Positions 5 through 43,500 of a stretch of 64,000 nt of DNA are shown piece by piece. Numbering within the stretch: position 1 is the first letter of the stretch; every line of letters begins with the position of its first letter. Under the pieces are notes generated by a model. It did no database searches. It had not been told where the DNA came from and was given only the letters and a program-made list of their open reading frames with translations. Made by a program: the position numbers and the translations under genes. This stretch comes from Candidatus Omnitrophota bacterium (GTDB lineage Bacteria > Omnitrophota > Gorgyraeia > Gygaellales > Profunditerraquicolaceae), in NCBI GenBank assembly GCA_026387335.1, contig JAPLLX010000004.1, positions 77,955 through 141,954 on the forward strand, given 5' to 3'.

Positions 5-2290
5 TTAGAAACCTACTTCGCTCTTCTTTCTGAAACTTAATACGCCGTGCTTTGAATATAAAATAGCCCCAAATATCACGACCACACAAAGCGCGATACT
101 AATTATAACACCAGCGTTAGTTATACGATAGTGAATAATTATAGGAGCGGCTAATAGCGAAACCATGTTGATTACTTTGATCATCGGGTTTAAGGCCGGG
201 CCGGAAGTATCCTTTAAGGGATCTCCAACGGTGTCGCCGACAACCGAAGCCTTATGCGCTTCGGAACCCTTGCCTCCGTATAAACCGTCTTCAATAGTCT
301 TCTTGGCATTATCCCAGGCGCCGCCGGCGGTAGCCATAAAGACCGCCAGAAGCTGTCCTGAAATAATTACGCCGGCCAAAAACCCGCCTAAAGCCTCAAC
401 CCTTAAGACCATCCCGATCAAAAGCGGGCTTAACACTGCGATTAAAGCCAAACCGACCAGTTCTTTCTGCGCCGATATCGTGCAGATATCCACCGCTTTT
501 TTATAATCCGGCTTGACTTTTCCTTCCATTAAACCCGGGATATGAAATTGCCTGCGCACTTCATCAACAATCAGGGCTGCTGCCCGGGCCACGGAATTAA
601 TCATCAGGCTGGAGAATAAACAGGGTATTGCCGCGCCGATAAGTAAACCGACAAAAACAATCGGCTCCGAAACCCGGATACCTGTGGTCAAAAGCCGTAA
701 AGACTCGGCTATACCCATCTGCGCCTGGACTTTGGTGACATCGGTCAAAAAAGCGCCGAACAAGGAAACCGCGGCGATTACCGCTGAACCTATAGCGACG
801 CCTTTAGTAATTGCCTTAGTGGTATTTCCTACGGCATCCAGGTCGGCCATGATCTGGCGGGCCTTTGGTTCCAAATGCGCCATTTCTCCGATACCGTTAG
901 CATTATCCGCGATAGGCCCGAATGAATCCATAGCCACGTTATTTCCGGTCAAGGTAAGCATACCGATACCGGTCATCGCTACGCCATAAAGGATAAACAC
1001 AACGGGTTGTCCCCAATAGATCACTATAGCAGCCATAATAGTAAGCGCGATAACTATAAATTGCCAAGCGCTGGACTCAAGGCCTATAGATAGCCCGCGT
1101 AAGATCAAGGTCGCCGCGCCCGTCCTGGATGAACCAGCGATTTCTTTTACCGGAGCGTGATGCGTATGGGTAAAATATTTGGTTATTTCGTCAATGACAA
1201 TAGCCAGAACTATACCCATGGCTACGGAGAAAAACGCCCTCCATTCGTGCATATAGTAATGGGCTAGAAATAAAAACGCGATTATTGAAATCGCGGCAGA
1301 TGAATAAAACCCGCGGTTTATACTCTTAAACGCGTCCTGACCTTTGCCGTCTTCTTTCTTGCTCCCCTTTACCAGATACGTACCGATAATTGAAGAAAGG
1401 ACTCCGATACCGCGCACTAATAACGGAAAGACTATCCACTTTAATTCTCCGGTGATAGAAACCAGCGCTAAACCTAAAATCAAACCGGAGACAATAGTTA
1501 CTTCGTAAGATTCAAAAATATCCGCGGCCATACCCGCGCAATCACCGACATTATCGCCTACCAGGTCAGCGATGACCGCGGCGTTTCTAGGGTCATCTTC
1601 GGGAATATTCTTTTCTACCTTACCTACAAGGTCAGCTCCGACATCCGCTGCTTTAGTATAGATGCCGCCGCCGACACGCATAAAGAGCGCCAGGAGCGTT
1701 CCGCCGAAACCAAATCCCAATAATACGTCGGGAGAAGCGATACCAAAAATAATAAATATCAGCGTGCCGCCTAAAAGCCCAAGACCGTCGGTAAGCATAC
1801 CGGTAATAGTACCGGTACGATAGGCTATCTTTAAGGCCTCGGCAAAACTTCTGCGGGAGGCGGAAGCTACGCGCACGTTACCTTCAACTGCCATGCGCAT
1901 ACCGAATTGGCCTACGGTAAGAGAGAAGAAAGCACCCATAACGAACGCCGCTGCCCTGCCTAAACCAACAATAAGGCGGACCAAATCCGGAGTAAGATTG
2001 CTGAAACGCTTCAGCGCTTCATCACTCGGAGGAATAACATAAACCGAAAAGAATAAGACGCCGGTAAGGACTAAAATTAAAGGAAGTATGCTTTTTAACT
2101 GACGGGAAAGGTAAGCGTCCGCGCCTGTGCGTATCGCGTTCCAGACATCCTGCATACCCTGAGTTCCTTTATCGTGAGCTAAAACCTGCTTGCGCAGGAA
2201 CAAAGCGTAACCTAATCCCATAAAGGCGATTAAAAGCACGCCCCAAATCGCCACCATCTCAAAAACACTCGCATTCATTAAACCTAACAT
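5..2290 (-). CDS. hppA: Membrane-bound proton-translocating pyrophosphatase (K+-independent type)
   Basis: 761 aa polytopic protein with the DNVGDCAG PPase motif; GNTTKA (Lys) variant suggests K+-independence; typical length. Confidence 0.88.
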   Translation of the reverse strand: MLGLMNASVFEMVAIWGVLLIAFMGLGYALFLRKQVLAHDKGTQGMQDVWNAIRTGADAYLSRQLKSILPLILVLTGVLFFSVYVIPPSDEALKRFSNLTPDLVRLIVGLGRAAAFVMGAFFSLTVGQFGMRMAVEGNVRVASASRRSFAEALKIAYRTGTITGMLTDGLGLLGGTLIFIIFGIASPDVLLGFGFGGTLLALFMRVGGGIYTKAADVGADLVGKVEKNIPEDDPRNAAVIADLVGDNVGDCAGMAADIFESYEVTIVSGLILGLALVSITGELKWIVFPLLVRGIGVLSSIIGTYLVKGSKKEDGKGQDAFKSINRGFYSSAAISIIAFLFLAHYYMHEWRAFFSVAMGIVLAIVIDEITKYFTHTHHAPVKEIAGSSRTGAATLILRGLSIGLESSAWQFIVIALTIMAAIVIYWGQPVVFILYGVAMTGIGMLTLTGNNVAMDSFGPIADNANGIGEMAHLEPKARQIMADLDAVGNTTKAITKGVAIGSAVIAAVSLFGAFLTDVTKVQAQMGIAESLRLLTTGIRVSEPIVFVGLLIGAAIPCLFSSLMINSVARAAALIVDEVRRQFHIPGLMEGKVKPDYKKAVDICTISAQKELVGLALIAVLSPLLIGMVLRVEALGGFLAGVIISGQLLAVFMATAGGAWDNAKKTIEDGLYGGKGSEAHKASVVGDTVGDPLKDTSGPALNPMIKVINMVSLLAAPIIIHYRITNAGVIISIALCVVVIFGAILYSKHGVLSFRKKSEVGF

Positions 2291-2308: not shown

Positions 2309-2716
2309 TTATCCTTGAGTTGTTGCCGCAATATTCAAATTTCTTATTCCTGCTGTATTTAAAATATCCAGTACGCCTACGATATCCTTAAAACGCACCA
2401 GCCTGTCTGAACTGACAATAACGCCTAAAGACGGATCCTTTTCGTGCCTGGCAATGACCTTATCCTTTAATTCCTTACGGGTGACCATCGAACCGTCCAG
2501 ATATATTGTTCCTTCATTGGTTATAGTTATATTTAGCGGCCCCATCTCCTTGACCGGAAGGGCGCTGGCAGCCTGCGGAAGATTGACCTTCAGGCTGGAC
2601 TGTAAGATTAAAGGCGTGGTTATCATGAATATTATCAAGAGGACCAGGATAACATCGGTAAAGGGGGTTATGTTAATCTCGGCTATTAATCTTTGTTTAT
2701 GAGCGCGTAAGTTCAT
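2309..2716 (-). CDS. exbD: ExbD/TolR family biopolymer transport protein
   Basis: 135 aa, single N-terminal TM helix, ExbD/TolR-like N-terminal region (ITPFTDVILVLLIIFMITTP). Confidence 0.75.
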   Translation of the reverse strand: MNLRAHKQRLIAEINITPFTDVILVLLIIFMITTPLILQSSLKVNLPQAASALPVKEMGPLNITITNEGTIYLDGSMVTRKELKDKVIARHEKDPSLGVIVSSDRLVRFKDIVGVLDILNTAGIRNLNIAATTQG

Positions 2717-3330
2717 TTTTGTTTAACCGTCAATAAGTCCATTGTTTCGGAAGCGCACAGCTCCATATCGGTAATAAAATTATCGATTTTCTTGGTAAAA
2801 TAATTATAGGCGATAACCGCCGGGACCGCGACGCATAAACCCATAGCTGTGCAGGCCAACGACTCGGATATTCCGCTGATGACCACACTTATACCGCCGG
2901 AACCGCTCATAGATATATCGTGAAACGCCCGGATGATCCCTAAGACAGTGCCAAAAAGCCCTATGTAAACAGCGGTGCTGCCTATAGTGCCGACTATGCT
3001 GGTGAATTTTTCTAATTTAGTCGTCTCAATAGTTATTTCTCTCTCCATGGTATTGGATATAAGCATCTCATTATGGCCATGCAGATTAAGGCCCGAATAG
3101 ACTACGCTGGAAAACGGGGTATCCGTAGCTTTACAGGTCTCCAGAGCCTTAAGAATATCGCCCTTTGCCAACTCCCGGCTAACTCTTAACATAAAATCCG
3201 GCCTCTTGATCTTGGACCTTCTGCGGTAGTAAACATACCTTTCTATAATAATAGCTAACGATAAAACCGAACAAGCTAAAAGAACATAAATCGTCAGGCC
3301 GCCGCTTTTAAGCATCTGCCATATGGTCAT
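2713..3330 (-). CDS. exbB: MotA/TolQ/ExbB proton-channel family protein
   Basis: 205 aa, 3 TM, conserved C-terminal MotA/TolQ/ExbB core; 4-nt overlap with exbD. Confidence 0.75.
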   Translation of the reverse strand: MTIWQMLKSGGLTIYVLLACSVLSLAIIIERYVYYRRRSKIKRPDFMLRVSRELAKGDILKALETCKATDTPFSSVVYSGLNLHGHNEMLISNTMEREITIETTKLEKFTSIVGTIGSTAVYIGLFGTVLGIIRAFHDISMSGSGGISVVISGISESLACTAMGLCVAVPAVIAYNYFTKKIDNFITDMELCASETMDLLTVKQK

Positions 3331-3932
3331 CTGGAGCCTCCTCTGATATTTGTTTTTTTCTTAGTGTAGAAAAAACGCGTAAACCTGAAAGCCAAAAATA
3401 TTAATACCGCAAAGAGTATTAAAATAAAAACTACTTTTGTGTATTTAACAATTGCGGCGCCAAAAAGAGCCAACAGAAATATCCTTGGCAAAACCCCGGC
3501 TAACGTGCATAATACAAACGGTATAAACGCAATCCGGGTAATACCCGCGGCGATGGAAAAGACCTTAAAAGGGATTATCGGCAGGACTCTTCCGATAAAT
3601 ACGCTGGCTACCCCGTACTTTTTAGCAAATTCTTCCGCCTTATAAATATGCTGCGGCTTGATAAGTATGAACCTGCCGAATTTTAATAACACCGGCATAG
3701 CGGCATACCTGCCTAAGGCATATCCCACCATGGCCCCTAAGGTTGAACCCAGGGACCCAAAAATAAGCACCGCAGCCAAAGGTATACCTATTGCCCCGGC
3801 GCCGATTATAATCACCTCGGAAGGTATAGGGACTACGCAGGACTCCAAAAACATAGCCAGGAATACGCCTAAATCGCCGAACCTGACAATTAACGCGGTT
3901 AAATCATTCTGCAAAACAGCGGAATAATCCAC
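3327..3932 (-). CDS. DedA/SNARE-associated (VTT-domain) membrane protein
   Basis: 201 aa polytopic, DedA-like G-rich re-entrant region (GRVLPIIPFKVFSIAAG). Confidence 0.65.
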   Translation of the reverse strand: MDYSAVLQNDLTALIVRFGDLGVFLAMFLESCVVPIPSEVIIIGAGAIGIPLAAVLIFGSLGSTLGAMVGYALGRYAAMPVLLKFGRFILIKPQHIYKAEEFAKKYGVASVFIGRVLPIIPFKVFSIAAGITRIAFIPFVLCTLAGVLPRIFLLALFGAAIVKYTKVVFILILFAVLIFLAFRFTRFFYTKKKTNIRGGSR

Positions 3933-3941
3933 AAATGCCCT

Positions 3942-4319
3942 CTATTCTTTCGGTTTTTCCTGGCTCTCTTTATAAGAGAATACCACCCTAAGTTTATTCT
4001 TATCCAACTGGGCCAGTTCTACTTCTTTTGTCGGTTCCAGCGCTTTCTTCGGGCAGGAATCCACGCACTGCGCGCAATATATGCATCTGCTTAAATCAAA
4101 TACCGCCTCAAATTTATTATCGGCGACCTTATTAATGGTAATAGCGTTAGTCGGGCAGTCGCGCATGCACATTTTACAGCCGATGCACCTTTCGGGGTAA
4201 AACTTAAGCTTGCCGCGGAACCTATCCGGCATATCTAATTTTTGAGCCGGATACAAATTTGTAGCCGGTTTCTTAAAAATAGACCCGAGCACCTCTCTTA
4301 ACATCTTTCCCGGTCTCAT
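3942..4319 (-). CDS. nuoI: 2x[4Fe-4S] ferredoxin-like subunit (NuoI/HycF/EchF family)
   Basis: Two CxxCxxCxxxCP motifs ([24 protein letters not shown]); position in cluster. Confidence 0.85.
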
Positions 4320-5257
4320 CTAAAAAACATTCCTTTCATAGTCAGATTAAATAAAAGCTGCAGCAGGGCCAGCGGAACCAGGTATTTCCAGCAAAAGTTA
4401 ATCATCTGGTCCATACGCAGCCTGGCGACAACCGTGCGTAATAATGAAATCAGGCTTATAATAAAGAGGATCTTAATAATAAAAATCAGGAATCCTATAA
4501 CCGGATGGAGATTTAAACCAAAAGGGAAAAAAACTAAAGCTAGCAGCGCGCTTCCCACAATCATCTCCACGTCTAGGGTCATCCTCAAGAAAGCCAGCAT
4601 TCTTCCGCTGTATTCAGTAAACCCTCCGGCAACCACTTCTGTTTCTGCTTCCGGGATATCAAAGGGAACTTTTTCCAGCTTACCTAATAGACTGACTAAG
4701 GCTATGGCAAAACCCAATAGGTTAAACATCCAAACATAAGGATGGCTGGTATAAAAAACAGCTATCTCTCTTAACGACCAGGTATCTGCCAAAAGCGCCG
4801 AAGAGAGGATACCCATAAATAAAGGAACCTCGTAAGCGAATAATTGCATAAGCGAACGCACTGAGCCGATCCGGGAATATAACGAAGTTGAATACCAGCC
4901 TCCGATGAAGAAGGCCAATGTAGGCAGGGTTAATAGATACAGGACAACTATGACATCCCCGTTAAAAGAAAAAAGCGCGTCCGCCTTCCATAGAGGAATA
5001 TAAAAAAAGGCGGTTATGGCTGAAGCTAACGCGAATAGCGGAGCTATTTTAAACATCTTCGGGTTAGACGCAGCCGGCACAATATCCTCTTTGCTCAAAA
5101 GCTTGATAAAATCCGCTACCGGTTGAAACCAGGGCGGACCGACCCTGTTTTGCAACCGGGCATAGATCTTGCGGTCAATAAATTCCGCGATCCAGGCGAA
5201 ATTAATCAGAAAAACAAACCCCGGAAATATAAAAATATAAAATAATTCTCCTAACAT
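4316..5257 (-). CDS. nuoH: NuoH/HycD/EchB-family membrane subunit
   Basis: 313 aa polytopic, NuoH-like conserved loops; operon context. Confidence 0.85.
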
Positions 5258-5259
5258 AA

Positions 5260-6498
5260 TTATCCCGTTAACCCCTTTGCGCTTAGTTTTTTATTAAGCG
5301 CGGTAAAATCTATCCCCTGTTTCTTGTACCACTCTAGGCTGTAAGCATGTAAAGCCGGCCAGCTGATTATCTTACCCGTAGCGCTTTCCTGCTCTTTGAG
5401 AGCGATCAAGCGGTCGGTGCAGGAAAAACACGGGTCAATCGCCGCGATGACAATAGGCATATCCGCCAGGTATCTATCGCGCAGCATATGCTTCACCGCC
5501 TGGATATTGGCTAAAGTAGGCGCCCTGACCTTGACCCTATCCGGCTTCTCAGTGCCGTTGGCCCGGACATAATGCACGTCTTCTCCGCGCGGAGCTTCGT
5601 AACGGCTTAAGGCTTCTCCGGCGGGAATCTTACGCGGGGCCTTAATCGCTATAGGCCCGTCGGGTAAATTTTTCAGGGCCTGGCGGATTATTTTATAAGA
5701 TTCCATCAACTCTTTAACCCGGACCACTGTCCGGCCATAAACGTCACAACGCTCATCCGTAATCACCTTAAATTCTAATTCGCCATAGGCAGCGTAGGGA
5801 TCATCCGCTCGAACGTCGCGCTTAACACCGGATGCGCGGGCAGTCGGGCCTACCGCATCCAGGCGCAAGACATCTTCGCGGGAAAGAATTCCTACTCCGG
5901 ATAACCTTTTGATTATAGTTGACTCTTGCGTAGCAACTTCAATATAATACTTTGTCCTCTCTTCAAGTATATCTAAAGCTATAAGTATCTCCTGGGATTG
6001 CTCAGGACTTATATCGCGCCTTACCCCTCCTATTGTATTCATACCGTAATTAACCCGGTTGCCGGTAATCGAAGCAAGAATATCCATTACTACTTCCCTA
6101 TCCCTCCAGGAATACATAAGCAGGGTATCAAATCCGATTTCATGGCCGGCCACTCCCAGCCACAAAAGGTGGCTGTGAATTCTTTCTAATTCGCCGATGA
6201 TAGTGCGGATATACAGCGCGCGTCTCGGGACAGCTAATCCGGCAATCTCTTCAACCGCCTGAATAAAACAGGTAGAGTGTGAATGCGAACATATTCCGCA
6301 GACGCGCTCAATAAGGTAAATATCCTGGATGTAGGTTCTCTCTTCGGCAGCCTTTTCTATTCCGCGGTGGTTATAGCCTAAACGAATATCCACGCCGAGG
6401 ATCTTCTCGCCTTTAAGGGCCACGCTAAAACCTTCCGGCTCTTTTAATGCCGGATGCTGCGGGCCGATGGGAATCTTAAAATCTTTAGAATTATGCAT
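5260..6498 (-). CDS. NuoD-family / group-4 [NiFe]-hydrogenase large subunit (retains Ni-Fe cysteine ligands)
   Basis: 412 aa; N-terminal RVCGICSHSH (RxCGxCxxxH) and C-terminal DPCFSCTDR (DPCxxCxxR, identical in form to HycE) followed by about 45-aa tail; GPQHPA motif. Confidence 0.8.
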   Translation of the reverse strand: MHNSKDFKIPIGPQHPALKEPEGFSVALKGEKILGVDIRLGYNHRGIEKAAEERTYIQDIYLIERVCGICSHSHSTCFIQAVEEIAGLAVPRRALYIRTIIGELERIHSHLLWLGVAGHEIGFDTLLMYSWRDREVVMDILASITGNRVNYGMNTIGGVRRDISPEQSQEILIALDILEERTKYYIEVATQESTIIKRLSGVGILSREDVLRLDAVGPTARASGVKRDVRADDPYAAYGELEFKVITDERCDVYGRTVVRVKELMESYKIIRQALKNLPDGPIAIKAPRKIPAGEALSRYEAPRGEDVHYVRANGTEKPDRVKVRAPTLANIQAVKHMLRDRYLADMPIVIAAIDPCFSCTDRLIALKEQESATGKIISWPALHAYSLEWYKKQGIDFTALNKKLSAKGLTG

Positions 6499-6982
6499 TT
6501 TTGTCTACCCCCTGCTCTGTATCTAAAGCGGGTTTCCAGTCTTTTCTTAAAGGAAACTGATCAACCGGCCAATCATCAGTCAGCGGATAACGGTTCCCTT
6601 GCGGGAGGCCCTCAACCTTGGCTCCGAATAAATCCTCTAATTCCCTTTCATAGATCTCAGCTCCCGGGAAATAAGAAGTGACGGTTTTAATCAAAGGATT
6701 GGCTTTTGCTACGCTGGTCTTTAAATTGACCATGACTCTGGATTCGCCGGTCAAATGATATATAAATCCCAGCCTCTCCTGCTCATCCAGGCCGGTTATA
6801 GTGCATAAATGCGTAAGCTCTAATTCCTTGGCTAAATAAGCGAATACCGGCATAAAATTATCCAGGCTTACTTCAATAGACATGCGGCGCGGCCGGATTA
6901 TATTAACAGAACCTTCCAGATAATTAAATTTTTTTAGCAGTTCCTCTTTAATTTTTTCTTCCTGAGACATAGCTACCTCCAA
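6491..6982 (-). CDS. nuoC: NuoC/30-kDa subunit family
   Basis: 163 aa NuoC-like; overlaps the large-subunit start by 8 nt. Confidence 0.8.
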   Translation of the reverse strand: MEVAMSQEEKIKEELLKKFNYLEGSVNIIRPRRMSIEVSLDNFMPVFAYLAKELELTHLCTITGLDEQERLGFIYHLTGESRVMVNLKTSVAKANPLIKTVTSYFPGAEIYERELEDLFGAKVEGLPQGNRYPLTDDWPVDQFPLRKDWKPALDTEQGVDKNA

Positions 6983-7429
6983 CTATTTTTTAGCTTCCTT
7001 GTCTTCCAGGCTGGCTAAAAGTTTAACCACGCCGTCAATAATTGCCTTGGGGCTGGCCGGGCAACCCGGAATATACGCCGCGACAGGAATAACCTTATCT
7101 ATACCCGAAGCCACGTTATAACAGCCGCGAACTACACCTCCGGAACAAGCGCAGGCGCCTACCGCCACTACAAACTTGGGCTCCGGCATCTGCTCATAAA
7201 TCCGGCATAATCTGTCTTCTATCTGTTTAGTCACCGGCCCTGAACAAACTAGGACATCCGCATGGCGCGGTGTACCTTTTAACACCACCCCAAAACGCTC
7301 CAGGTCATAGCGGGGAGTAAGCGCGGCGATGATTTCAATATCGCAGGCATTGCAGGCCCCGGTGTTAAAATGCAGGATCCAGGGAGATTTAATCCTGGCC
7401 CAGGTAATTATTTTTTTAATCAGGCTCAT
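6983..7429 (-). CDS. NuoB-family / hydrogenase-type small subunit (CxxC variant)
   Basis: 148 aa; first cluster ligands as GACNACDIE (CxxC as in HycG/EchC, not CCxxE of true NuoB), GACACSGG, GCPA motifs. Confidence 0.8.
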   Translation of the reverse strand: MSLIKKIITWARIKSPWILHFNTGACNACDIEIIAALTPRYDLERFGVVLKGTPRHADVLVCSGPVTKQIEDRLCRIYEQMPEPKFVVAVGACACSGGVVRGCYNVASGIDKVIPVAAYIPGCPASPKAIIDGVVKLLASLEDKEAKK

Positions 7430-7439
7430 AACGCTCTTC

Positions 7440-7772
7440 CTATTTTCTTAATAATATGTATAAACCCATAATCCCGCCGATAATATAGAGCGCGGCCATA
7501 ACCAATATCCCCGCGTCGGCAATAGGCATAGTAGTAATAATCAGGGTAGCCACGTGCGCCAGCGTAAAGAAAAAGGCGAAAGGGAAAAAGGTGCTGTAAT
7601 CCGGCTGGGCAGTATTGTCAAAATTATTCTCCCCGCAGGCATAAGACTTAGAGCAGCCCGGCTTAAACTTATCGGAATGAAAGGCTATCTCCTTACCTAA
7701 ACGGTTTAAGATAAAGAGTAAAGCCAATATTATTATAAAAACAACCGCCGGGTTGATTAACCAATTATGCAT
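7440..7772 (-). CDS. nuoA: NuoA-family membrane subunit
   Basis: 110 aa, 3 TM, NuoA-like; cluster context. Confidence 0.65.
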   Translation of the reverse strand: MHNWLINPAVVFIIILALLFILNRLGKEIAFHSDKFKPGCSKSYACGENNFDNTAQPDYSTFFPFAFFFTLAHVATLIITTMPIADAGILVMAALYIIGGIMGLYILLRK

Positions 7773-7778
7773 AAAAAG

Positions 7779-8072
7779 TTACCCTTTCAGCCTTCTGACT
7801 TTCCGGACATCCAGTGAATTATTATAAATATGAATGCCTACGACTACCCCCACGGCTACCGTAATCATGACTACCTCTACTACTATCACCGTAATTACCA
7901 GGGCCTGAGCTAAATGCAGGTGCCCGCTTTTTGCGCCGGCGGCTATAATCAAAAGCGTTACGGCTTTAATCAAAATCTCTAACCCGATCAAGGCGCGCAC
8001 CAGATTATAACTGGCCATTATACAGTATATGCCGATGATAAAAAGCAGGACGACAAAAATCGCGCTAAGCAC
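7779..8072 (-). CDS. nuoK: NuoK-family membrane subunit
   Basis: 97 aa, 3 TM with conserved Glu-containing helices. Confidence 0.75.
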   Translation of the reverse strand: MLSAIFVVLLFIIGIYCIMASYNLVRALIGLEILIKAVTLLIIAAGAKSGHLHLAQALVITVIVVEVVMITVAVGVVVGIHIYNNSLDVRKVRRLKG

Positions 8073-8556
8073 TCTTCTTCCTTTCTTTAAATAATACCGC
8101 TACGCCAAAAACTCCGCCTAAGAGTATAATGACCTGGCCCAATAAATCCAACTGCCTCAGGTGCCACAATATGAAACGCGTATTTTCTCCGCTTTCCGGT
8201 AAGGGAAGCTGGACTTGGGAATGCGGGCCCAGCAAAACAAGTATCAGCCCTACGCCGATAAGAATAACCGGCAGGAGCCGGAAACGCGCGAACATAGACT
8301 TCATCCGTTCCAGGATTTCCTGATGCGTATACGGCTGGGTAAGGCTGACTACGCTCACGAATAAAACCGGGATTAACCCCGCGCAAACAGATAATTCAAA
8401 GACCGCCGCTAAATTGGCTTCCATCTTAAACATTATTACCGTAAGCACCGCGCTGGTAAGAGCCAGGCCTATAGCGGAACGCAAAAGGCTACGGGTCATT
8501 ACTGTCCATAATGCCGCGCTAACCAATAATATTAAACTGAGTAGATCCAGAAACAA
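8065..8556 (-). CDS. nuoJ: NuoJ-family membrane subunit
   Basis: 163 aa, NuoJ-like N-terminal TM region. Confidence 0.7.
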   Translation of the reverse strand: MFLDLLSLILLVSAALWTVMTRSLLRSAIGLALTSAVLTVIMFKMEANLAAVFELSVCAGLIPVLFVSVVSLTQPYTHQEILERMKSMFARFRLLPVILIGVGLILVLLGPHSQVQLPLPESGENTRFILWHLRQLDLLGQVIILLGGVFGVAVLFKERKKSA

Positions 8557-8557
8557 A

Positions 8558-9988
8558 TTACCCTCCGAATATGGAATTAAAACTTAAAATAAATCTATTC
8601 AGTATAAAAGGCGTAAAAATCCCTGCTCCAATAATCAAAGCCGCCAGTATTAACGCGGGGAAGGTGAGGCTGAATCCCGCTTCTTTTATATCCTTAAATT
8701 CAGCGTTGGGTTTTCCAAAGAAAACTTTCCTTTGTAAAATTAGAAAGTAGGTCAAGGTTAAAATACTGCCTAAGACCGCGATCACCGCGTAAGCCCGGAA
8801 ACCGGCCATCCAGAGCGCAATCACTATAACCAACTTGCTCCAGAAACCAGCTAATGGCGGAATCCCGGCGCAAGATAAACTTCCGATAATTGAAGTTAGG
8901 CTGGTTACCGGCATCTGTTTAGCTAAACCGCCCATCTCCTCTATATCTCTTGAACCAAGCTGACACTCAACCGCTGCGGAATTTAAGAAAAGCAGGGATT
9001 TAAAGGCGGCGTGATTAAAAATATGCAGGGCTGCTCCGGCTATACCTAAAACCGAGCCGCTTCCTACGCCTAAAATAATATAGCCGACCTGGCTGATACT
9101 GGAATAGCTAAGCATCCGCTTAAAATCGCTTTGGGTAAGCGCGGCTATTGCCGCCAGAATCGCCGAAAGAGCGCCCACCAACAAAAGAATGCTTTTTATT
9201 GCCGGGCTAAAACTAATCACCGATACCAATATCCTGATTAAAACATATACCCCGGCAATCTTAGTGACTACGCCCGCCAATAATACCGAGGCCGCAGCCG
9301 GCGCCGCAGTATAAGCGTCCGGCAGCCAACCGTGAAAAGGCATAAGCCCGGATTTAATAAACAGGGCCACAATAAATAAGCCTATCCCTAAGCTGATTAA
9401 AAAATCCTTATTATGATTAAGCAGGACTGCATGGATAACCGCAAAGCTGGTGCTCCCGGCAATGAGCATAAACAGAGCGATACCGGCAAGCATTAAAACT
9501 GTGGCTACTCCGGAAAGCAGAATATATTTAAATGCTCCTTCTAACCCTAAAATATCCCGGTTAAAGGCTATGAGAATAAAGGAAGAAATCGCGGTAATCT
9601 CTAAATATATATACAGAGAAAAAATATCCTGCGCTAACGCTACGCCGTTCATCCCGGCCACGGCAATTAAAATTATATTAATAAAATTAAACCGCCCTGC
9701 GCTATCTTTAAGGGTTTGCCGGGTAGCAAAAAGAGCGCTAAAAGAGACCAAACCGATACAGAATAAAATAACTTTGCTTAAACTATCAGCGCTCAACTCA
9801 AAGCTAAATATACTGCCGAAGGCGTGCGGGTTGATCTTCCAAAAAGCTGCATCCGGAATAAACACCGCAGCCATCTGGAGTAAAGATAGGCAAATAGCGC
9901 CTCCGAAAGCCAGCTTCCGGATTCCCTTAAGCGGCAGATTCAGGATAAGGACGCTAAAAAATGGGACCAAAATCAATAACGCGCTCAT
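8558..9988 (-). CDS. NuoM/NuoN-type antiporter-like subunit
   Basis: 476 aa, about 14 TM, Mrp/NuoLMN proton-pumping family signature regions (e.g. WLPDAY...). Confidence 0.8.
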   Translation of the reverse strand: MSALLILVPFFSVLILNLPLKGIRKLAFGGAICLSLLQMAAVFIPDAAFWKINPHAFGSIFSFELSADSLSKVILFCIGLVSFSALFATRQTLKDSAGRFNFINIILIAVAGMNGVALAQDIFSLYIYLEITAISSFILIAFNRDILGLEGAFKYILLSGVATVLMLAGIALFMLIAGSTSFAVIHAVLLNHNKDFLISLGIGLFIVALFIKSGLMPFHGWLPDAYTAAPAAASVLLAGVVTKIAGVYVLIRILVSVISFSPAIKSILLLVGALSAILAAIAALTQSDFKRMLSYSSISQVGYIILGVGSGSVLGIAGAALHIFNHAAFKSLLFLNSAAVECQLGSRDIEEMGGLAKQMPVTSLTSIIGSLSCAGIPPLAGFWSKLVIVIALWMAGFRAYAVIAVLGSILTLTYFLILQRKVFFGKPNAEFKDIKEAGFSLTFPALILAALIIGAGIFTPFILNRFILSFNSIFGG

Positions 9989-10006
9989 TTAAATATGCTC
10001 TTCTTT

Positions 10007-11842
10007 CTATAAAATAACCAACACTCCGAAGATAACCAGCATACCTACGAGGGACCAGGCTAAATAAATAGAGTAATTACCCGTGTGCAGCCTCCTGATC
10101 CCTAAAGATAAACCGTTCGCTAACCAAACGCTCAATCCATCGGAAAGCCAATTTACTGCTTTATCTATACCTAAACTAATCCGGGAAATAATATTTACTA
10201 TGCCTAAACCCCAATTATAGGGGTCAAAAAATCTTTTTTCGGCCAAATCATAAATTTTGGCCATAAACGGAGCGTAACGGATATGGTCCAGGGCGTGCAA
10301 ACCGCTTCCTTTAATCTTTACGCCAAAAAGGTGATTAGCTACGGCTAAAAATAAAACCGCGAAAGTAACTACTACCATCCAGATACTGGCAGGGAAACCG
10401 CTGAAATTATGCCCGGCTAACCTTATCCCTAGTATTGGCTGAATCAGGTGATTTAATGGCAGCTGGTTAAAAACGCCAAAGATCAGGCAAACGAGCGCGA
10501 TAACAATCATCGGGATCAACATACTAAAACACGCTTCCTTAGTCTTGGCGTTCTCCGGGCTAAGCTTGCCTAGAAAAGCAGCGTGGCCTAATTTTAAAAA
10601 TGACGCGGCAGTAAAAAATGAACCTAACACCGCGATAAAATAAAATATCCATCCCCGCTCAATCGCGCCCTCATAAACCAATTCTTTGGAGAAAAATCCG
10701 TTAAACGGCCAGACTCCGGATATAGCCACAGCGGTAATTAAGAAACAGGTAAAAGTTACCGGCATCTTCTTAGCTAACCCCCCTAATTTCTCTAAATTAG
10801 TCGTGCCTACCTGCTTTTCCACGCTGCCAGCGCTAAGGAATAACCCGCTTTTATACAACGCGTTGTTGATCATATGAAAAAGCCCGCCGACAATACCGGC
10901 CGGGACTGCCGTACCAATACCCAGGATCATATATCCTACCTGGCTAACGGCGTGATACGACAAGAGGCGCTTATAATCCTTCTGGATCAAAGCCATCAGA
11001 ACAGCCAGGATTATAGTTATCGCGCCTACCGTCATAAGCAAAATACTGACTCCGGATTTTGTAGTCATCTGAAACATATCCAGCGAGATCCTGGTCAGAA
11101 AATATATGCCTAAAAGCTTCTCTAACGCCGCCGGAACAAAGCTCATAAAAGGAAGTGGCGCGTCGGTAGCGGCGTCCGGAATCCAGCTATGAAAAGGCAT
11201 TGCCCCGCCTTTTGAAATCGCGCCGATCATAAGAAGTATAAAGGCCAGGTTCGTAACGCCATTATTTAAAGGAAGATTCATTCTGGAAATTGCCATTGTG
11301 CCGCTTAAATGCCCGGTCAGGGCAATACCCAGCATCATACATAAATCGGTTATACCTACGATAATAAAGGCTTTGGTGGCAGTCTTAAAAGCTTCCTTGT
11401 TCCCGACGGCGATCATCCCGAAGAGTAAGAGCAAGAAAGCCTCCCAGAAGAAAAAGAGGACCAGCAGATTATCGGATAAAAATACCCCGTTACTAAAAGC
11501 TATCGCCAAAAGGAAATAACCGTAGAACTGGCTAAGGAAATTCCTCCCCCGCATAAAAACAACAGAATATAAGGCGATAAAAAAGCCAAAAAACGCGGTA
11601 GCTAAAAGCATAAAGGAGCTAAACTGATATAATCTAAAGGATAATTCCAGTCCTGGGCTGATCCAGGGCAAAGTAAAGGTGAGCTTCTGTTGAAATAAGA
11701 AAATTGCCAGGAGTAAGCTAGCCAAACTGGAAAATACTAACAGGCTTTCTTTTATTCTCCGCAGTTTTTCCGGAAGAAAAAACATGATCACTCCGGAGAA
11801 TAAAGGAATAATTATTGTAAGTAGCAATGCCTTAGCTATCAT
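10007..11842 (-). CDS. nuoL: NuoL-type antiporter-like subunit with C-terminal extension
   Basis: 611 aa; NuoL-sized, HSWIPDA motif, long C-terminal helix/TM extension. Confidence 0.8.
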   Translation of the reverse strand: MIAKALLLTIIIPLFSGVIMFFLPEKLRRIKESLLVFSSLASLLLAIFLFQQKLTFTLPWISPGLELSFRLYQFSSFMLLATAFFGFFIALYSVVFMRGRNFLSQFYGYFLLAIAFSNGVFLSDNLLVLFFFWEAFLLLLFGMIAVGNKEAFKTATKAFIIVGITDLCMMLGIALTGHLSGTMAISRMNLPLNNGVTNLAFILLMIGAISKGGAMPFHSWIPDAATDAPLPFMSFVPAALEKLLGIYFLTRISLDMFQMTTKSGVSILLMTVGAITIILAVLMALIQKDYKRLLSYHAVSQVGYMILGIGTAVPAGIVGGLFHMINNALYKSGLFLSAGSVEKQVGTTNLEKLGGLAKKMPVTFTCFLITAVAISGVWPFNGFFSKELVYEGAIERGWIFYFIAVLGSFFTAASFLKLGHAAFLGKLSPENAKTKEACFSMLIPMIVIALVCLIFGVFNQLPLNHLIQPILGIRLAGHNFSGFPASIWMVVVTFAVLFLAVANHLFGVKIKGSGLHALDHIRYAPFMAKIYDLAEKRFFDPYNWGLGIVNIISRISLGIDKAVNWLSDGLSVWLANGLSLGIRRLHTGNYSIYLAWSLVGMLVIFGVLVIL

Positions 11843-13284
11843 TTAATCACTCCCAACATCTGCCCAACAGCTCCTTGCGCAAATTTATACGGGTAATAAA
11901 TCAAAAATCCGGCGGCCAGAGATAGCAGGGCTAAGCTAACCACGCTGGCCACCATTACGGGGCTGGCTTCCTTGCCCGCGACATTTACCTTACCCAGAAA
12001 GACCATATTAAATACTCGAAAAAGATAAATAATAGTCAAAAAGGCGCCGATTAAGAATATAAGCACCACCCAAAGCCTCCCCGAGGCTAACGCGCCGCTA
12101 AAAACCAGGTATTTACTGAAAAAACCTCCGAACGGAGGTATTCCCATTACTGAAAAAGCGCAAGCCAGGAACGCTATTGCCGTAAACGGCATAGTAGAAA
12201 TCAATCCACCCAACTTAGTAATATCTTTAGTCTTAGTATTTTGCTCTACTATCCCGGCGCAAAGGAATAAGCCGGCTTTGGCCAAACCGTGCATCAAAAT
12301 AAAAAGGAGCGCGCCTAAAACCGCGATTTCATTGCCGATGGCTAAACCAAAAAAGATAAAACCAATCTGGCTAATCGTAGAATAAGCGATGATCCTCTTT
12401 AAATCTGTTTCGATTAATGCCGCGCCCGCCGAGACAATCGCGCTTAGGCCGGCGATCAAAGGCAGAAGCGTATGCCATAAAACATCGGGAGTAATATTCA
12501 CGATAAAAATACGCGCGTAAACATAAACGCCTATTTTAACTAAGACCGCGGCGTGCAAAAGTGCTGTAACCGGGCTGGGCGCGACACCGGCGTCAGGTAG
12601 CCAGGTATGAAACGGCAGGGTCGCGGATTTAGAGAGTATACCGACCAGAATCAAGGCGACGACCAGATTGGAAATATTGCCTTGGGTCTTTAGGACTTCT
12701 TTAATAACAGGTAAATCAAAAGAGCCGGTCTGTTGATAAATACTGATGAAACCGATTAACATTATCAGGCTTCCAAAGACCGTCACTAAAAATGCCTTAT
12801 CCGCCTTTAAAACATAAGGCTTGTCTCTAAAGAACCCGATCAGCCGCCAGCTGGTTATGGCGGTGATCTCCCAGAATATATACATAAGGATCAGGTTAGC
12901 GGAGAAAACCAAACCCATCATCGAGCCTAAGAAAAGAGTGACCATACAATAATATTCATTCTGATTCTCGTAGTGGCTGACATAGCTGAATGAATACAAA
13001 ACAATGACCGCGCTGATCAGGCTGGATATACAAGCCATAAATACCGCGAGATTATCGGCAAGCAGGGTAAAATTAAGGCCGAGAGCGAACGGCTGTTGGA
13101 TAAGAATAGTTTTACCGGATAAGACAAAAGGAATGAGCTTTAAGGAAAGAATGAACGAACTTAGAATAAAGACAAAAGACAGTATATTTCTCAGGCGGCC
13201 AGAGAACTTAGCCACCCAAGGCAGGCAGAACGCGCCAATAACAGGAATAAAAATGATACCCAAAACCAAAGTACTATAATTCAT
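11839..13284 (-). CDS. NuoM/NuoN-type antiporter-like subunit
   Basis: 481 aa, FHTWLPDA motif, polytopic; first gene of the cluster. Confidence 0.8.
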   Translation of the reverse strand: MNYSTLVLGIIFIPVIGAFCLPWVAKFSGRLRNILSFVFILSSFILSLKLIPFVLSGKTILIQQPFALGLNFTLLADNLAVFMACISSLISAVIVLYSFSYVSHYENQNEYYCMVTLFLGSMMGLVFSANLILMYIFWEITAITSWRLIGFFRDKPYVLKADKAFLVTVFGSLIMLIGFISIYQQTGSFDLPVIKEVLKTQGNISNLVVALILVGILSKSATLPFHTWLPDAGVAPSPVTALLHAAVLVKIGVYVYARIFIVNITPDVLWHTLLPLIAGLSAIVSAGAALIETDLKRIIAYSTISQIGFIFFGLAIGNEIAVLGALLFILMHGLAKAGLFLCAGIVEQNTKTKDITKLGGLISTMPFTAIAFLACAFSVMGIPPFGGFFSKYLVFSGALASGRLWVVLIFLIGAFLTIIYLFRVFNMVFLGKVNVAGKEASPVMVASVVSLALLSLAAGFLIYYPYKFAQGAVGQMLGVIK

Positions 13285-13373: not shown

Positions 13374-13401
13374 ATTTTAGCAAAAATAGCCCAGCTGTCA
13401 A
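13374..13401 (-). promoter_or_regulatory. Candidate sigma70-type promoter for the hydrogenase/nuo-like cluster (TTGACA-N16-TAAAAT on minus strand)
   Basis: Minus-strand TTGACA (rc of 13396-13401), 16-nt spacer, TAAAAT (rc of 13374-13379), about 90 nt upstream of the first cluster gene. Confidence 0.4.
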
Positions 13402-17529: not shown

Positions 17530-17548
17530 TTCTTTACCTATGTCTAGT

Positions 17549-18034: not shown

Positions 18035-18053
18035 TTAGCCCTCCGCTTTTTCG

Positions 18054-18770: not shown

Positions 18771-18859
18771 AGAAACGGTATCTTAACGTTGATTTGTAAT
18801 TTAAAGCTTATCTTACCTCAAATTGGGATGAGGGTCAAGGGTAAATAGGGATAGCCAGA

Positions 18860-21911: not shown

Positions 21912-21987
21912 GCCAAAGCAAAAGCGTCCCTTTTTTTATGTTAGAAATCAGTAAATTATGCGTCTATTGTACTAGGAGGTGGTAAAT

Positions 21988-22464
21988 ATGCCAAGAACAG
22001 CAAGAATTACCGTAGAAAATGGTTGTTATCATATTATCACAAGAGGAAATCAGAAACAATCTGTTTTCCTAAAGCCTCATGATTACGAAAAATATTTAAG
22101 CTTTCTTATGAGATATAAGAAGAAGTTCAAATTTAAGTTATACTGCTTTTGTTTAATGCCTAATCATGTGCACCTTATCATTGAGTTAAATAATCCTTCT
22201 ATTCTCAATAGAATTATGCGTGGTTTAAATTTAAGCTATACTCGATATTTTAATTTCAAATATAAAAAGGTTGGACACCTCTGGCAGGACCGATTCAAGA
22301 GTAAAATCATAGAAAAGGATGCTTACCTTTTAGAATGCATAAACTATGTCGAATCTAACCCAGTAAGAGCATCCTTGTCATCACACATAAATGAATATGG
22401 TTGGAGTAGTTATAATTTTAGGGGGACAAACAACGAACTAGTTGACAGTCTATTTTCTTTGTAG
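21988..22464 (+). CDS. REP-associated tyrosine transposase (IS200-like HuH Y1 transposase)
   Basis: HuH motif NHVHLIIE; HLWQDRF and YVESNPVRASL (RAYT Tyr helix) motifs; ATG at 21988 preceded by AGGAGG at 21974-21979 (tracker start at 21979 is an upstream GTG). Confidence 0.8.
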   Translation: MPRTARITVENGCYHIITRGNQKQSVFLKPHDYEKYLSFLMRYKKKFKFKLYCFCLMPNHVHLIIELNNPSILNRIMRGLNLSYTRYFNFKYKKVGHLWQDRFKSKIIEKDAYLLECINYVESNPVRASLSSHINEYGWSSYNFRGTNNELVDSLFSL

Positions 22465-40535: not shown

Positions 40536-43500
40536 TTATTTTATTTCATCCGTCATTTTTTTCCCAGGCGGCGCGTGTATTAACCTTAAAAGAAAAAGCC
40601 CTATTTCCCCCAACAGCTCTCTACCTAACTGCCAGCTTATCTTATTACTATTCATTGTAACCGGGCTAGAGATTGATACTCTCCTTATTTCAACATTTAA
40701 TCTTCGGGTATCTATTGCCTGTTCGGGCTGCGGCCCGGTTTTTACTTCCCCGCGCGTCGTCGCCATCGCTCCAAACAGACCCACCACCGGCGAGCTGGAA
40801 AGGATAAGGTAAATTTCCGAGCCTAATTCCTCTTGCAGCGATTGCGCGCCTAATCTAACATTCTCGCTTTCATCACTCTTCCACTGCTGGATATAATCAA
40901 TTATTAACTTCTTAATGGCTAAACTTTCTGTTTCTCGGAATAACCGGCTAATCTTTGGAGCATCATTCTGGTACTTAAGCATACCGTGCATCTTCCAACC
41001 AAGGTTCCCTGAAAAATTCCCCCATATTCTTTCGGGTTCTATTTCAACTAAATAATCCAAAGCCGTATTGGTTCCTCTCTCCCCTTGATGATCCAGGGCG
41101 ATTTTATCAAGTATCCTCAAAGCTTCTTTCATATTCAACTTTTTAATCATTTCAGCGATTCTTTCAATACTGTTGTATTTAATTAAAATACTACCGCTGT
41201 TTTCCCTGAAGAAGAGAATCGCCTCAACAGCTTCCCGATAAGGAAGTTCAGCTAAAAGGGCCATTGCTTCCATCTGGATGACATCTTCTTTAGCGCCCTG
41301 ATAATCTTTGAGCTTGCCAATAACTTCCTGAATATCCTTTCTATTATTAAATATACTGTGCATATTCCTTATCTCTTGCCAAATGTCGTTAAATTTTAAA
41401 AGTTCATCTAAAGTATGAGGTATTTTCCCTTTATAGTATTTACGCCTATTCTCTTCCCAGGGAAGAAAGGTATAGAAGTTTTTATACCCAGGAACACTAT
41501 CTCCAATGTTTAAAGTAGCCAGGATCTTATTCTGATGAAGCCACATGAATTCGGCAATACCGCATTCATCGCCTTTATAGAATTGTGTCTCGGGGGAATG
41601 TGCGGCCATGATAAAATCGGTATAGTATGTTACTGCCGGAGTACTTAAATATAGGTAAACATCTGGCTTAGCGCTTTGTAGAAGTTCTATAAAATCCTTA
41701 AGCATCACTCTTACATAACCAAAGAAATTGCCCCTGATTACCCACCAGGTCTTTCCTTCCTTACTCCTATAGAGCAAGATTTGGTATTTCTTTGTTGAAG
41801 CGGCTCTTAATTCCTCTAAGGTTGGCGGTTGGATAAGAAAAGGCTTTTGAATATCGCCGTAGTCCAACTTAAGGGCAGCTGGATTATCAAATTCTTTGAG
41901 TACTTCGGTAAGAGTACCCGGACCTTCCTTTCTTACCTTTGGAAGTATTATTTTTGGCTTCGCAGAAGACAGGAAAAATCTTTTTTGAAATTCTTCGCTA
42001 AAATTACGTTCGATTATCTGCCAATCAAGTTCTAACGCTCTGCCTCCCGAACTACCATCGTAATCGTAAGGCGACTTCTTGAGTTCGTGGGGGAAAAATA
42101 AAATTTTTATTCCATCGATATCTTCTGTTATGTAGCCCTGTAAGTTAAATAATTTGTTTTCTTTACTAACTGGCGAGCTGGACTGCGGCGCTAGGGGTAA
42201 GCCGGAATTAATTGTTGCGGGCACTCCGCTAACATCAACCTCGCTATCCTTAATAAGCACAAAATTCGTATCAGCTAAAAGGTCTTGAACGTGGATAACC
42301 CCTTCTTGACTGCGCGTATAAAGATATATACGTGAATTTTTAGGCTTCTTTGAAAATTCCAGTACAGGAGCGATAAGCCGGCCATTTTCTTTCAAATGAG
42401 GAAGAATATTTTTAATTCCTCCTTCTGTTATAGCCGCGCTAATTACAATCACATCGAATACCTCACGAAGATTCCTATTCAAATAGTCAAATACGTTTTC
42501 GGTGATTACCTTTACATTAGTAACGCGCTGCCGGACGAGGTTTTCTCCAGCCTCTTTTGCCACTTCTTTGATCAATTCAATACCTATTACCTCTCCCTCT
42601 CGCCCCACCTGGCGGCTTAAGATTGCCAGCGAATATCCGCATCCAGAGCCAACCTCAAGAACACGTTCGCCTAATTTAGGATTAACATTAATCAGCATCC
42701 AATAGATTAACGCAGGCTGTGATGTTGTAGAATCATTGCCAGAAAGATTAATTGCTTCATTGAGATGCGCAAGATGTCGCCGGGCCTGCGGTACAAAGTA
42801 GAATCTCTTTACGGCGCGGAAAGCTTTCCAAAGACGCGGACTATATTTAACCCATAAACCCAAAACCGACTTAACATTTATTAATAGCCTCTTCTGAGAC
42901 CGACTTGCTTGAATACGCTCGGACAACCTATTAAACCATTCTCTTACCGGCGAACTGGAGCGATCAAACGGTGAGGCGGCGGGTTTGGTTGCCGGCGAGC
43001 CGGAGCCGCTATCTTTCCCCTTTTTCTTCTTTTGGCTTGCCTCAAGACGCAGGTTGACGATACAGAGTTTCTCTTCTACTTCATCCAATATTAGCCTGAG
43101 TTCTTGGATTTTTGAATCATGGTTACTGACTTCTGCCGAGAGTAGCGCCCTGTCTTCCTGAAGAACCTGATATCTCATTTCGTATGTGGGAAGTAAACTT
43201 AAAAACTCATCACGCGCATAATTCTGATAATTACTCCTGAACATAGCGATGGCTTGTTTAAAACCTAAGATGATTTCGCTTAGTCTCTGGATTTTCAACT
43301 CAACTTTTTGGATACGTAAAGACAACTCCTTTTGTCTCCTTTCCCATGCCTGGCGGTCCTGACCAGATAACTCCTGCTGGACACGCTGTAATTCTTCCAA
43401 TTTTTCCCTACCGGTTATAAGTTGATATTCCAGCGCAGCTGCCTGCTCTTTAAGTCTAGAGATAGCTTTCTTGTTAAGGGGCTTTTGGTAAAATACTGTC

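Follow-up and report, generated by a model that had tools for sequence, protein, structure and literature searches.

A 64,000-nt stretch of contig JAPLLX010000004.1 from the Candidatus Omnitrophota assembly GCA_026387335.1, which was analysed as a whole and is called the window here, contains a gene cluster related to respiratory complex I and to membrane-bound [NiFe]-hydrogenases. The cluster occupies the minus strand from position 13284 to 3942 and comprises 11 open reading frames (ORFs), which are arranged head to tail and are tightly packed (the intergenic gaps range from -8 to +18 bp). The order of transcription is P1-P2-P3-J-K-A-B-C-D-H-I, where P designates an antiporter-like subunit. 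A preceding interpretation of the same DNA from its letters (the sequence-only reading) had described a complex-I-like cluster of 11 genes that starts with the antiporter-like subunits, and such a cluster was found where it had been placed. Its gene order, given as N/M-L-M/N-J-K-A-B-C-D-H-I, was correct; the class of the first gene was not, as its product belongs to the NuoL/MrpA/HyfD class and is not N/M-like. All constituents of the postulated full complex-I membrane arm (A, H, J, K and three pumps) could be assigned, A and J by means of profiles. In agreement with the postulated lack of an NADH module, no family of the NuoE, NuoF or NuoG type was detected when the main ORFs beyond the cluster, with the exception of one giant ORF of 7,787 aa, were scanned against Pfam. 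The features of the locus are compiled in Table 1.

Table 1. Genes and other features of the window discussed in the text; the genes of the cluster are given in the order of their transcription.
Feature	Position	Strand	Basis and remarks
Promoter-like site	13374..13401	minus	TTGACA, 16-nt spacer, TG-TAAAAT; located some 90 bp ahead of P1
P1, antiporter-like subunit 1, 481 aa, NuoL/MrpA/HyfD class, without C-terminal extension	11839..13284	minus	PF00361 (E 4e-74) and PF00662
P2, antiporter-like subunit 2, 611 aa, NuoL-type with C-terminal lateral-helix extension	10007..11842	minus	Alignment to Nqo12 and MbhH
P3, antiporter-like subunit 3, 476 aa, MrpD/NuoN/NuoM class	8558..9988	minus	PF00361 (E 1e-65); NCBIfam models MrpD, NuoM and NuoN
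J, NuoJ-equivalent subunit, 163 aa, resembles MbhD/MbsD fused to an MbhE-like C-terminus	8065..8556	minus	Oxidored_q3-like; PF00499 just below cut-off
K, NuoK/MrpC-like subunit, 97 aa	7779..8072	minus	PF00420 (E 3e-16); NCBIfam models NuoK and MrpC
A, divergent NuoA/ND3-like subunit, 110 aa	7440..7772	minus	Profile match; no single-sequence Pfam hit at default threshold
B, hydrogenase small subunit, NuoB/MbhJ-like, 148 aa, one [4Fe-4S] site	6983..7429	minus	PF01058
C, NuoC/MbhK-like subunit, 163 aa from a TTG start	6491..6982	minus	PF00329 (E 2e-23); relative in locus L003 called at 159 aa
D, [NiFe]-hydrogenase large subunit precursor, 412 aa	5260..6498	minus	PF00346 and PF00374
H, NuoH/MbhM-like membrane anchor, 313 aa	4316..5257	minus	PF00146 (E 2e-76)
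I, NuoI/MbhN-like 2x[4Fe-4S] ferredoxin-type subunit, 125 aa	3942..4319	minus	Pfam Fer4 families
DedA/VTT	3327..3932	minus	Pfam
ExbB	2713..3330	minus	Pfam
ExbD	2309..2716	minus	Pfam
Membrane H+-pyrophosphatase	5..2290	minus	Pfam
IS200-like Y1 transposase gene	21979..22464	plus	PF01797 (E 3e-18)
Giant ORF, 7,787 aa, TTG start	40536..63899	minus	

The large subunit (D) carries a complete set of nickel-iron ligands, as judged from its sequence. The two motifs named in the sequence-only reading are present: motif L1, RVCGICSHSH, comprises residues 65-74 and contributes C67 and C70, and motif L2, DPCFSCTDR, comprises residues 355-363 and contributes C357 and C360. L2 is followed by a C-terminal tail, which is predicted to be a pro-peptide. 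The existence of this tail had been recognized before; its length, however, is 49 residues (364-412) and not about 45. Both ligand motifs are kept in all 120 of the closest database homologues (78-99% identity), and nearly all of these proteins possess a tail of 45-49 aa. An alignment of 78 sequences, which reaches down to 36% identity, shows no exchange of C67, C70, C357, C360 or R363, and at least 90% of the sequences have kept E20. Likewise conserved is the N-terminal loop LKEPE, which contains a Glu as in the hydrogenase Mbh. The conservation of the tail, which contains a few anchor positions, is 0.55 compared to 0.89 for the core, no segment of which falls below 0.80.

Among proteins of known structure, MbhL is the closest relative of the large subunit. 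A sequence search of the PDB yielded 344 bits for MbhL, 290 for HycE and 227 for Nqo4, and the corresponding identities of the core are 49%, 40% and 37.5%. The HMMER alignment to E. coli HycE extends into the tail, up to query residue 389. As in MbhL, the sequences LKEPE and RVCG stand at the positions that ligate the quinone in Nqo4 (the His in STHGVL and the Tyr in RMDY), and therefore no quinone site is assumed. An AF2 model of the subunit (pLDDT 88.8) gave HycE and MbhL as top fold matches, followed by NuoD homologues; this fold search agreed with the sequence searches and gained nothing beyond them.

The small subunit (B) supports the same affiliation. Its first cluster motif GACNACDIE, with C26 and C29, is followed by C93/C95 and by C123. 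As had been proposed, the motif is of the hydrogenase type: its CxxC aligns with SGSCNGCDIE of MbhJ and represents an insertion of two residues relative to the CC of the complex I subunits NdhK and NDUFS7. In the PDB search, MbhJ reached 161 bits, HycG 121 and Nqo6 112. For the H-like subunit, MbhM (146 bits) was followed by Nqo8 (133 bits). Altogether, the subunits D, B and H and the L-like pump were each searched singly against the PDB; in all four cases Mbh from P. furiosus came first and complex I from T. thermophilus or another organism next, and the scores of formate hydrogenlyase (FHL) from E. coli lay between those of Mbh and complex I, or lower. Subunit I, the presumed entry point of electrons, contains two CxxCxxCxxxCP motifs (C45-C55 and C79-C89). 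The cluster combines the L1/L2 motifs, a large subunit that is closer to the catalytic subunits of group 4 than to NuoD/FpoD, and a single-cluster small subunit with C, H and I partners, and these are the features of a group 4 hydrogenase.

The composition of the membrane arm is a different one. The antiporter-like subunit 1 matches the NCBIfam model of HyfD over its full length (292 bits). The best PDB match of subunit 2 is MbhH with 180 bits, but this match is limited to residues 9-459, and about 140 residues are extra at the C-terminus. Residues 5-608 can be aligned to residues 2-604 of T. thermophilus Nqo12; due to this alignment over the whole length, subunit 2 is taken to carry the NuoL-type extension that forms the lateral helix. 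The motifs common to MbhH, which include a Glu in transmembrane helix (TM) 5 and a Lys each in TM7, TM8 and TM12, are kept in all three antiporter-like subunits, and by these residues the pumps look active.

The two remaining small membrane subunits were assigned by means of profile matches, which are of modest strength. A profile of 19 orthologues of J matched MbsD (6u8y_D) with an E-value of 1e-10 and MbhD (6cfw_D) with 8e-8, compared to 2e-3 for NuoJ; residues 121-160 additionally gave a weak match to MbsE and MbhE. The label "J" given previously is therefore appropriate in the sense of a NuoJ equivalent, which occurs here in an Mbh-like form. For subunit A, a profile of 18 orthologues was used. 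The top 12 PDB matches were all ND3 proteins (best E 0.0015), a YxCGE motif is in register with the (F/Y)ECG of ND3, and PF00507 was touched below threshold by 17 of the 18 orthologues (best E 9.5e-6). His73, located in the motif FFFT-I/L-x-HV at the place of the acidic pair in TM2 of ND3, is invariant in 18 of 18 aligned orthologues. According to these profile data, the ORF of 110 aa is a divergent NuoA homologue. None of the 11 genes encodes a component of the Mrp-type sodium module (MbhA, B, C and F, or MrpE/F/G-like proteins). By the criterion of homology, the peripheral arm resembles Mbh in its sequences, and the membrane arm corresponds to complex I in its set of subunits. The resemblance to Mbh/Mrp-type respiratory hydrogenases noted in the sequence-only reading consequently applies to one part of the enzyme: Mbh was best in the four PDB searches, but the Mrp sodium module is missing and the arm is of the complex I type.

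In order to place the large subunit, for which the sequence-only reading had named a position among inactive NuoD or Ehr proteins as a refutation, a distance tree of 128 sequences was calculated by neighbour joining (NJ), not by maximum likelihood, and without the HydDB reference set. In 99 of 100 bootstraps, the clade of the window protein, MbhL and HycE excluded the NuoD-like sequences; in 78 of 100, the clade grouped with Mbh to the exclusion of HycE. The placement that would have spoken against a hydrogenase was therefore not obtained. An exhaustive HMMER search over 1.8 billion cluster representatives revealed that L1 and L2 are carried by almost all neighbours of the large subunit at 40-61% identity. 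Three relatives that lack the cysteines and resemble Ehr (P0140, P0176 and P0187) adjoin P0121 in the NJ tree, a 61%-identical protein that has kept the ligands and whose locus contains hycI; the window protein is not among them. These positions suggest that hydrogenases of this kind may have been converted repeatedly into non-hydrogenase complexes.

The vicinity of these Cys-less proteins in the tree raises the question of whether the window cluster might encode an Ehr- or complex-I-like ferredoxin:acceptor oxidoreductase, with the cysteines as leftovers of evolution. That the best NCBIfam match of the large subunit is the NuoD model (344 bits, just below its cut-off of 360 bits) would fit such an enzyme. 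We consider it highly improbable, given that the four cysteines, the Glu of the loop and the Arg at the cleavage site are invariant or nearly so across hundreds of sequences, that the quinone-ligand residues are missing and that the NJ tree excludes the NuoD-like clade. A further argument comes from the dedicated maturation protease described below, whose gene belongs to the operon in most lineages.

The cluster is widespread. A scan in which each GTDB species was represented by a single genome found the large subunit to have relatives in 282 species genomes. The best 80 of these 282 are 71-88% identical and stem from metagenome-assembled genomes (MAGs) labelled Omnitrophota, Planctomycetota (Phycisphaerales, Sedimentisphaerales and Pirellulales), Verrucomicrobiota, Kiritimatiellia, Victivallaceae, Krumholzibacteria, Elusimicrobiales, Endomicrobiales, Margulisiibacteriota and Riflebacteria. 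The order P1-P2-P3-J-K-A-B-C-D-H-I is identical in all relatives with a complete contig and recurs in Omnitrophota, Planctomycetota, Verrucomicrobiota, Elusimicrobiota and further phyla. The flanking genes vary between lineages, and the cluster is therefore regarded as a self-contained unit. At greater distance, the architecture is preserved to a varying degree. Locus L085 (61% identity) is identical where it can be read, with one antiporter-like gene in view before the end of the contig, and contains hycI. In L087 from Methanoregula (58% identity), J-K, a fused double pump and a third pump are followed by A-B-C-D-H-I-HycI. L089 from Anaerolineales (55% identity) has two pumps, and L088 from Bathyarchaeota (also 55%) shows the nuo/fpo order A-B-CD-H-I-J-K-L-M-N. 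In L088, an FrhB/FdhB-like gene of the F420-binding type (17370-18896) is located directly after the last antiporter-like gene, which hints at an input module linked to F420 or a similar cofactor on an enzyme with nickel-iron ligands.

Maturation genes were searched with tblastn, using HypA-F, HycH and HycI from E. coli as queries against the window and 83 related loci (84 sequences, 1.3 Mb). In 61 of the 84 sequences, the gene of subunit I is immediately followed by one for a HycI homologue (E 1e-16 to 1e-25); if only sequences that include the downstream region are counted, the proportion is 61 of 74. The hycI gene either overlaps with the gene of the last subunit or adjoins it, and is spread over at least six phyla; its products, which contain PF01750, bear the NCBI name hydrogenase maturation peptidase HycI. 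The fact that hycI follows the operon in most loci is strong evidence that the tail is a pro-peptide which is cleaved and that the family consists of real [NiFe]-hydrogenases. According to the family tree, the adjacent hycI is ancestral and has become missing twice, namely in a monophyletic group comprising the window and 10 further genomes (L003-L012), and in the pair L001/L019. In the window and in 8-9 related loci, a DedA/VTT gene occupies the position of hycI.

A comparison with characterized and predicted systems shows which features are shared and which are not. Mbh from P. furiosus (group 4d, 6CFW) is the best match of known structure for the large, the small, the H-like and one antiporter-like subunit, and has in common with the window cluster the L1/L2 ligands, the CxxC of the small subunit and the MbhD-like J subunit. 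The deposited MbhL chain stops at DPCLSCTDR, which is where the tail of the window protein starts. In Mbh, ferredoxin delivers electrons via a NuoI-like subunit. However, Mbh combines a single antiporter-like subunit with a sodium module of the Mrp type (MbhA-C and F), whereas the window cluster encodes three antiporter-like subunits, one of them with the lateral helix of NuoL, and a NuoA homologue. Moreover, Mbh is archaeal and encoded by 14 genes; the window cluster is bacterial and has 11 genes, to which hycI is added in most relatives.

The enzymes Hyf and FHL from E. coli (group 4a, 7Z0S) resemble the window enzyme in the homology of HycE, which reaches into the cleaved tail, and in the predicted HycI-type maturation of the window family. 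In addition, Hyf has three antiporter-like subunits as well, and pump 1 of the window matches HyfD. In contrast, the window cluster lacks a formate dehydrogenase and partners of the HycB/HyfA type, contains separate C and D subunits instead of the C-D fusion present in HycE, possesses a NuoA homologue and a J-like subunit, and is nearer to Mbh than to HycE in the tree. The 11-subunit enzymes related to complex I (Fpo-like complexes, cyanobacterial NDH-1 and the "ferredoxin-dependent complex I") share the same 11 core families, the lateral helix of NuoL, the absence of an NADH module and ferredoxin as the presumed donor; they differ in reducing quinone or methanophenazine, in a NuoD without nickel-iron cysteines and in a NuoB with CC. 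With respect to complex I proper (Nuo-14), the differences are the NuoEFG module not found in the main ORFs of the window, the replaced Tyr/His pair of the quinone site and the CxxC instead of CC. Ehr complexes are related to group 4, are bound to the membrane and contain antiporter-like subunits, and Cys-less members are found near the window family; they have, however, lost the nickel-iron ligands by definition, and the window protein has all four cysteines.

The closest counterpart in gene content is Hfo, an Fpo-like [NiFe]-hydrogenase of 11 subunits that has been described as subgroup 4g-6 from Bathyarchaeia, Ca. Methanomethylicus and Pyrodictium (Loh, Herve and Brune 2021, PMC7886697). 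Hfo, which is itself uncharacterized, has intact nickel-iron motifs and neither FpoFO nor NuoEFG, and was argued to close the gap between hydrogenases and complex I (PMC7886697). The inventory is the same as in the window, with homologues of NuoA-D and NuoH-N, conserved ligands and no NuoEFG/FpoFO. Yet Hfo is archaeal and its genes are in nuo/fpo order; in the bacterial window family, the operon starts with the antiporter-like genes, J and K, the J subunit is Mbh-like, and most members encode HycI in the operon. Note that Hfo was compared by its description and by means of the Bathyarchaeota relative L088, which is not the sister of the window clade in the NJ tree and deviates from the window cluster by a fused C-D subunit, a NuoA that is recognizable by Pfam, the absence of an adjacent hycI and the FrhB-like gene after N. 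The proposal of the sequence-only reading that the cluster is an evolutionary intermediate between group 4 hydrogenases and complex I coincides with this published interpretation of Hfo.

In studies of MAGs, the membrane-bound hydrogenases of Omnitrophota were assigned to HydDB group 4g and described as "Mrp-linked"; it is from these published surveys, and not from the HydDB classifier, that the label 4g is adopted for the window enzyme. Comparable clusters from Elusimicrobia were named "Mbh-Mrp type", and Endomicrobium has a 4g enzyme. Group 4g is heterogeneous and polyphyletic (PMC13582414, PMC7886697), loosely clustered and putatively coupled to ferredoxin.

Taken together, we assume with a probability of about 0.65 that the cluster encodes an energy-converting group 4 [NiFe]-hydrogenase that is bound to the membrane, with a membrane arm of the complex I type; the enzyme would depend on ferredoxin, pump protons and evolve H2, perhaps reversibly. 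This assignment is in line with the earlier suggestion of a group 4 ion pump that evolves or oxidizes H2, and is supported by the similarity to Mbh, by the NJ phylogeny and by the hycI gene that follows most operons. The homology with Mbh and FHL permits a mechanism to be drawn. Subunit I would receive electrons from reduced ferredoxin, which might originate from the oxidation of pyruvate in fermentation. The electrons would pass the cluster of the small subunit and reach the nickel-iron site, where protons would be reduced to H2. The reaction at the interface of D, B and H would induce conformational or electrostatic changes along the membrane arm, and protons would be expelled through up to four channels (one in the H/A/J/K region and one in each of the three pumps), feeding the neighbouring F-type ATP synthase. 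Nickel would be inserted into the precursor of the large subunit, and an endopeptidase of the HycI type would then cut off the 49-residue tail behind Arg363. The enzyme is probably reversible.

No conserved dehydrogenase partner (formate dehydrogenase, CO dehydrogenase or NuoEFG) is located beside the cluster in the 84 loci, and ferredoxin is therefore the likely partner. A fermentative setting is plausible because pta and ack are found 7 kb from the cluster in the relative L001. Coupling to protons would follow from three observations: the Mrp sodium module is absent, the pyrophosphatase (PPase) of the window carries the sequence GNTTKA, which marks the K+-independent, proton-pumping type, and the c subunit of the nearby ATP synthase, as seen in a 99% relative, lacks the Na+ signature.

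Several points weigh against this assignment, and the first group of them concerns maturation. By tblastn, neither hypA-F nor hycH was detected in the window itself or up to 10 kb away from any of the related loci, and motif scans for the N-termini of HypC and HypA returned nothing credible. One weak HypE match in L032 was discarded, as it is located inside an ORF of 969 aa that probably encodes a PurL-type protein. For the subclade of the window, hycI is absent from the 64-kb window and from the 10 kb around the cluster as well, and an Omnitrophota HycI query gave no match on the large contigs of the subclade among the best 120 of 768 matches. The absence of hyp genes at these loci could also be cited in favour of the cysteines being mere relics. 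KEGG orthologues of hypA, C, D, E and F are given in the source data of Seymour et al. (PMC10066038) for at least one Omnitrophota genome, for which the presence of the cluster is not established.

The missing protease gene has a possible explanation that is specific to this subclade: after the loss of hycI from the operon, the enzyme might no longer be matured and might be decaying or repurposed. The gene is missing after subunit I throughout the monophyletic group, DedA is found instead in the window and 8-9 related loci, and the search with the Omnitrophota query gave no match on the large contigs of the group. On the other hand, that search covered the best 120 of 768 matches, all 11 genes are intact and the subclade shows 100% conservation of the ligand motifs. 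The tail is as constrained as in lineages that bear hycI: at 85-90% core identity, tail identity is 0.60 in the subclade without hycI and 0.49 in the lineages that have it. Decay is therefore improbable, and the constraint on the tail argues for processing by a protease that would be encoded elsewhere. Presumably, it is present in another part of the genome to which the window belongs.

A second group of points concerns energetics and the state of knowledge on group 4g. The ion specificity and the electron donor of the proposed hydrogenase were deduced indirectly, and group 4g, including the enzymes from Omnitrophota, has been termed uncharacterized (PMC7886697). In addition, four channels are, according to our own estimate, hard to drive by the energy available between ferredoxin and protons, unless H2 is very low. 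This shortfall leads to the assumption of either a lower stoichiometry or an operation in reverse. In the latter case, the same enzyme would mainly consume a gradient generated by the co-located H+-PPase, by ATP hydrolysis or by both, in order to transfer electrons from H2 to ferredoxin for the fixation of CO2 or CO.

The genes downstream of the cluster are relevant in this respect. Subunit I is followed by DedA, ExbB, ExbD and a membrane PPase with gaps of 9, -4, -4 and 18 bp; the four genes are probably co-transcribed with the operon, but are not regarded as subunits. The closest relatives have the same arrangement. A PPase gene is located at most 2.6 kb from the cluster in 26 of the 84 loci, which belong to Omnitrophota and three orders of Planctomycetota. 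Besides the window, these are L003-L013, L015, L025, L026, L032, L033, L038, L045, L049, L051, L052, L057, L060, L061, L064 and L068. At least three arrangements occur: the PPase gene is located downstream, either on the strand of the cluster or convergent to it, or else immediately upstream on the strand of the cluster. A search of the literature for a link between pyrophosphatases and hydrogenases found no report.

This recurrent linkage, which fits either direction of the reaction, is compatible with a reverse mode, as is the high H+/2e- ratio expected from three pumps plus the H/A/J/K channel, which would suit the consumption of a gradient better than a weakly exergonic reaction. Reverse operation has been proposed for Hfo (PMC7886697) and is mentioned for the group 4g enzymes of Omnitrophota in the supplement of PMC10066038. 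However, neither genes of the Wood-Ljungdahl pathway nor other ferredoxin-consuming genes exist in the window, and none are conserved near the cluster; the PPase linkage could be mere co-regulation of genes for membrane energetics, and the characterized relatives Mbh and FHL evolve H2. A predominantly reverse operation is the less likely direction, and a ferredoxin-dependent evolution of H2 remains the preferred interpretation.

With regard to transcription, the promoter-like site upstream of P1 matches the consensus in 11 of 12 positions and has an extended -10 TG. It is a match to the consensus only, and sites of this kind are as numerous in the region as expected from shuffled sequences. 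An Rfam scan of the whole window detected no known RNA family, and hence no riboswitch upstream of the operon.

The remainder of the window is noteworthy for its strand bias. Nearly all genes from 1 to 64000 are located on the minus strand; just two of the scanned ORFs are on the plus strand, and the transposase ORF is the one with a Pfam match. The GC skew is negative in nearly all 2-kb bins, the single exception being 56001-58000 with +0.007. This pattern suggests that the window is part of one replichore with a strong gene-strand bias. More than one third of the window is occupied by the giant ORF; very large ORFs are a reported trait of Omnitrophota (PMC10066038).

The window cluster is a further member of a known and widespread, albeit biochemically uncharacterized kind of group 4 hydrogenase and not a new kind of system. 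It is less novel than the sequence-only reading assumed, since publications already cover the idea of an intermediate, the archaeal analogue and the class itself (4g or "Mbh-Mrp type"). New are the operon structure that, including hycI, extends over the family, the disappearance of hycI from the operon in the subclade of the window, the identification of the small ORF as a NuoA homologue and the recurrent linkage to a PPase. One might go further and regard the bacterial P1-P2-P3-J-K-A-B-C-D-H-I(-HycI) family as a distinct and hitherto uncharacterized class of hydrogenases, the bacterial counterpart of Hfo, whose complete proton-pumping arm of the complex I type would comprise three pumps, the lateral helix of NuoL and a NuoA with His in place of the acidic pair. 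In view of the PPase linkage in two phyla, these enzymes might consume a gradient and act as a pyrophosphate-powered H2:ferredoxin oxidoreductase. This proposal is speculative and rather doubtful; if it were true, energy-starved, ultra-small bacteria could gain low-potential reductant from traces of H2.

For the window itself, the result is mainly a sound annotation. Beyond that, enzymes of this kind are intermediate between simple energy-converting hydrogenases and respiratory complex I, and bear on the evolution of complex I as well as on the amount of energy that a hydrogenase is able to conserve. In several phyla, uncultured anaerobes abundantly possess members of the family, which probably determine the balance of H2 and ferredoxin there.

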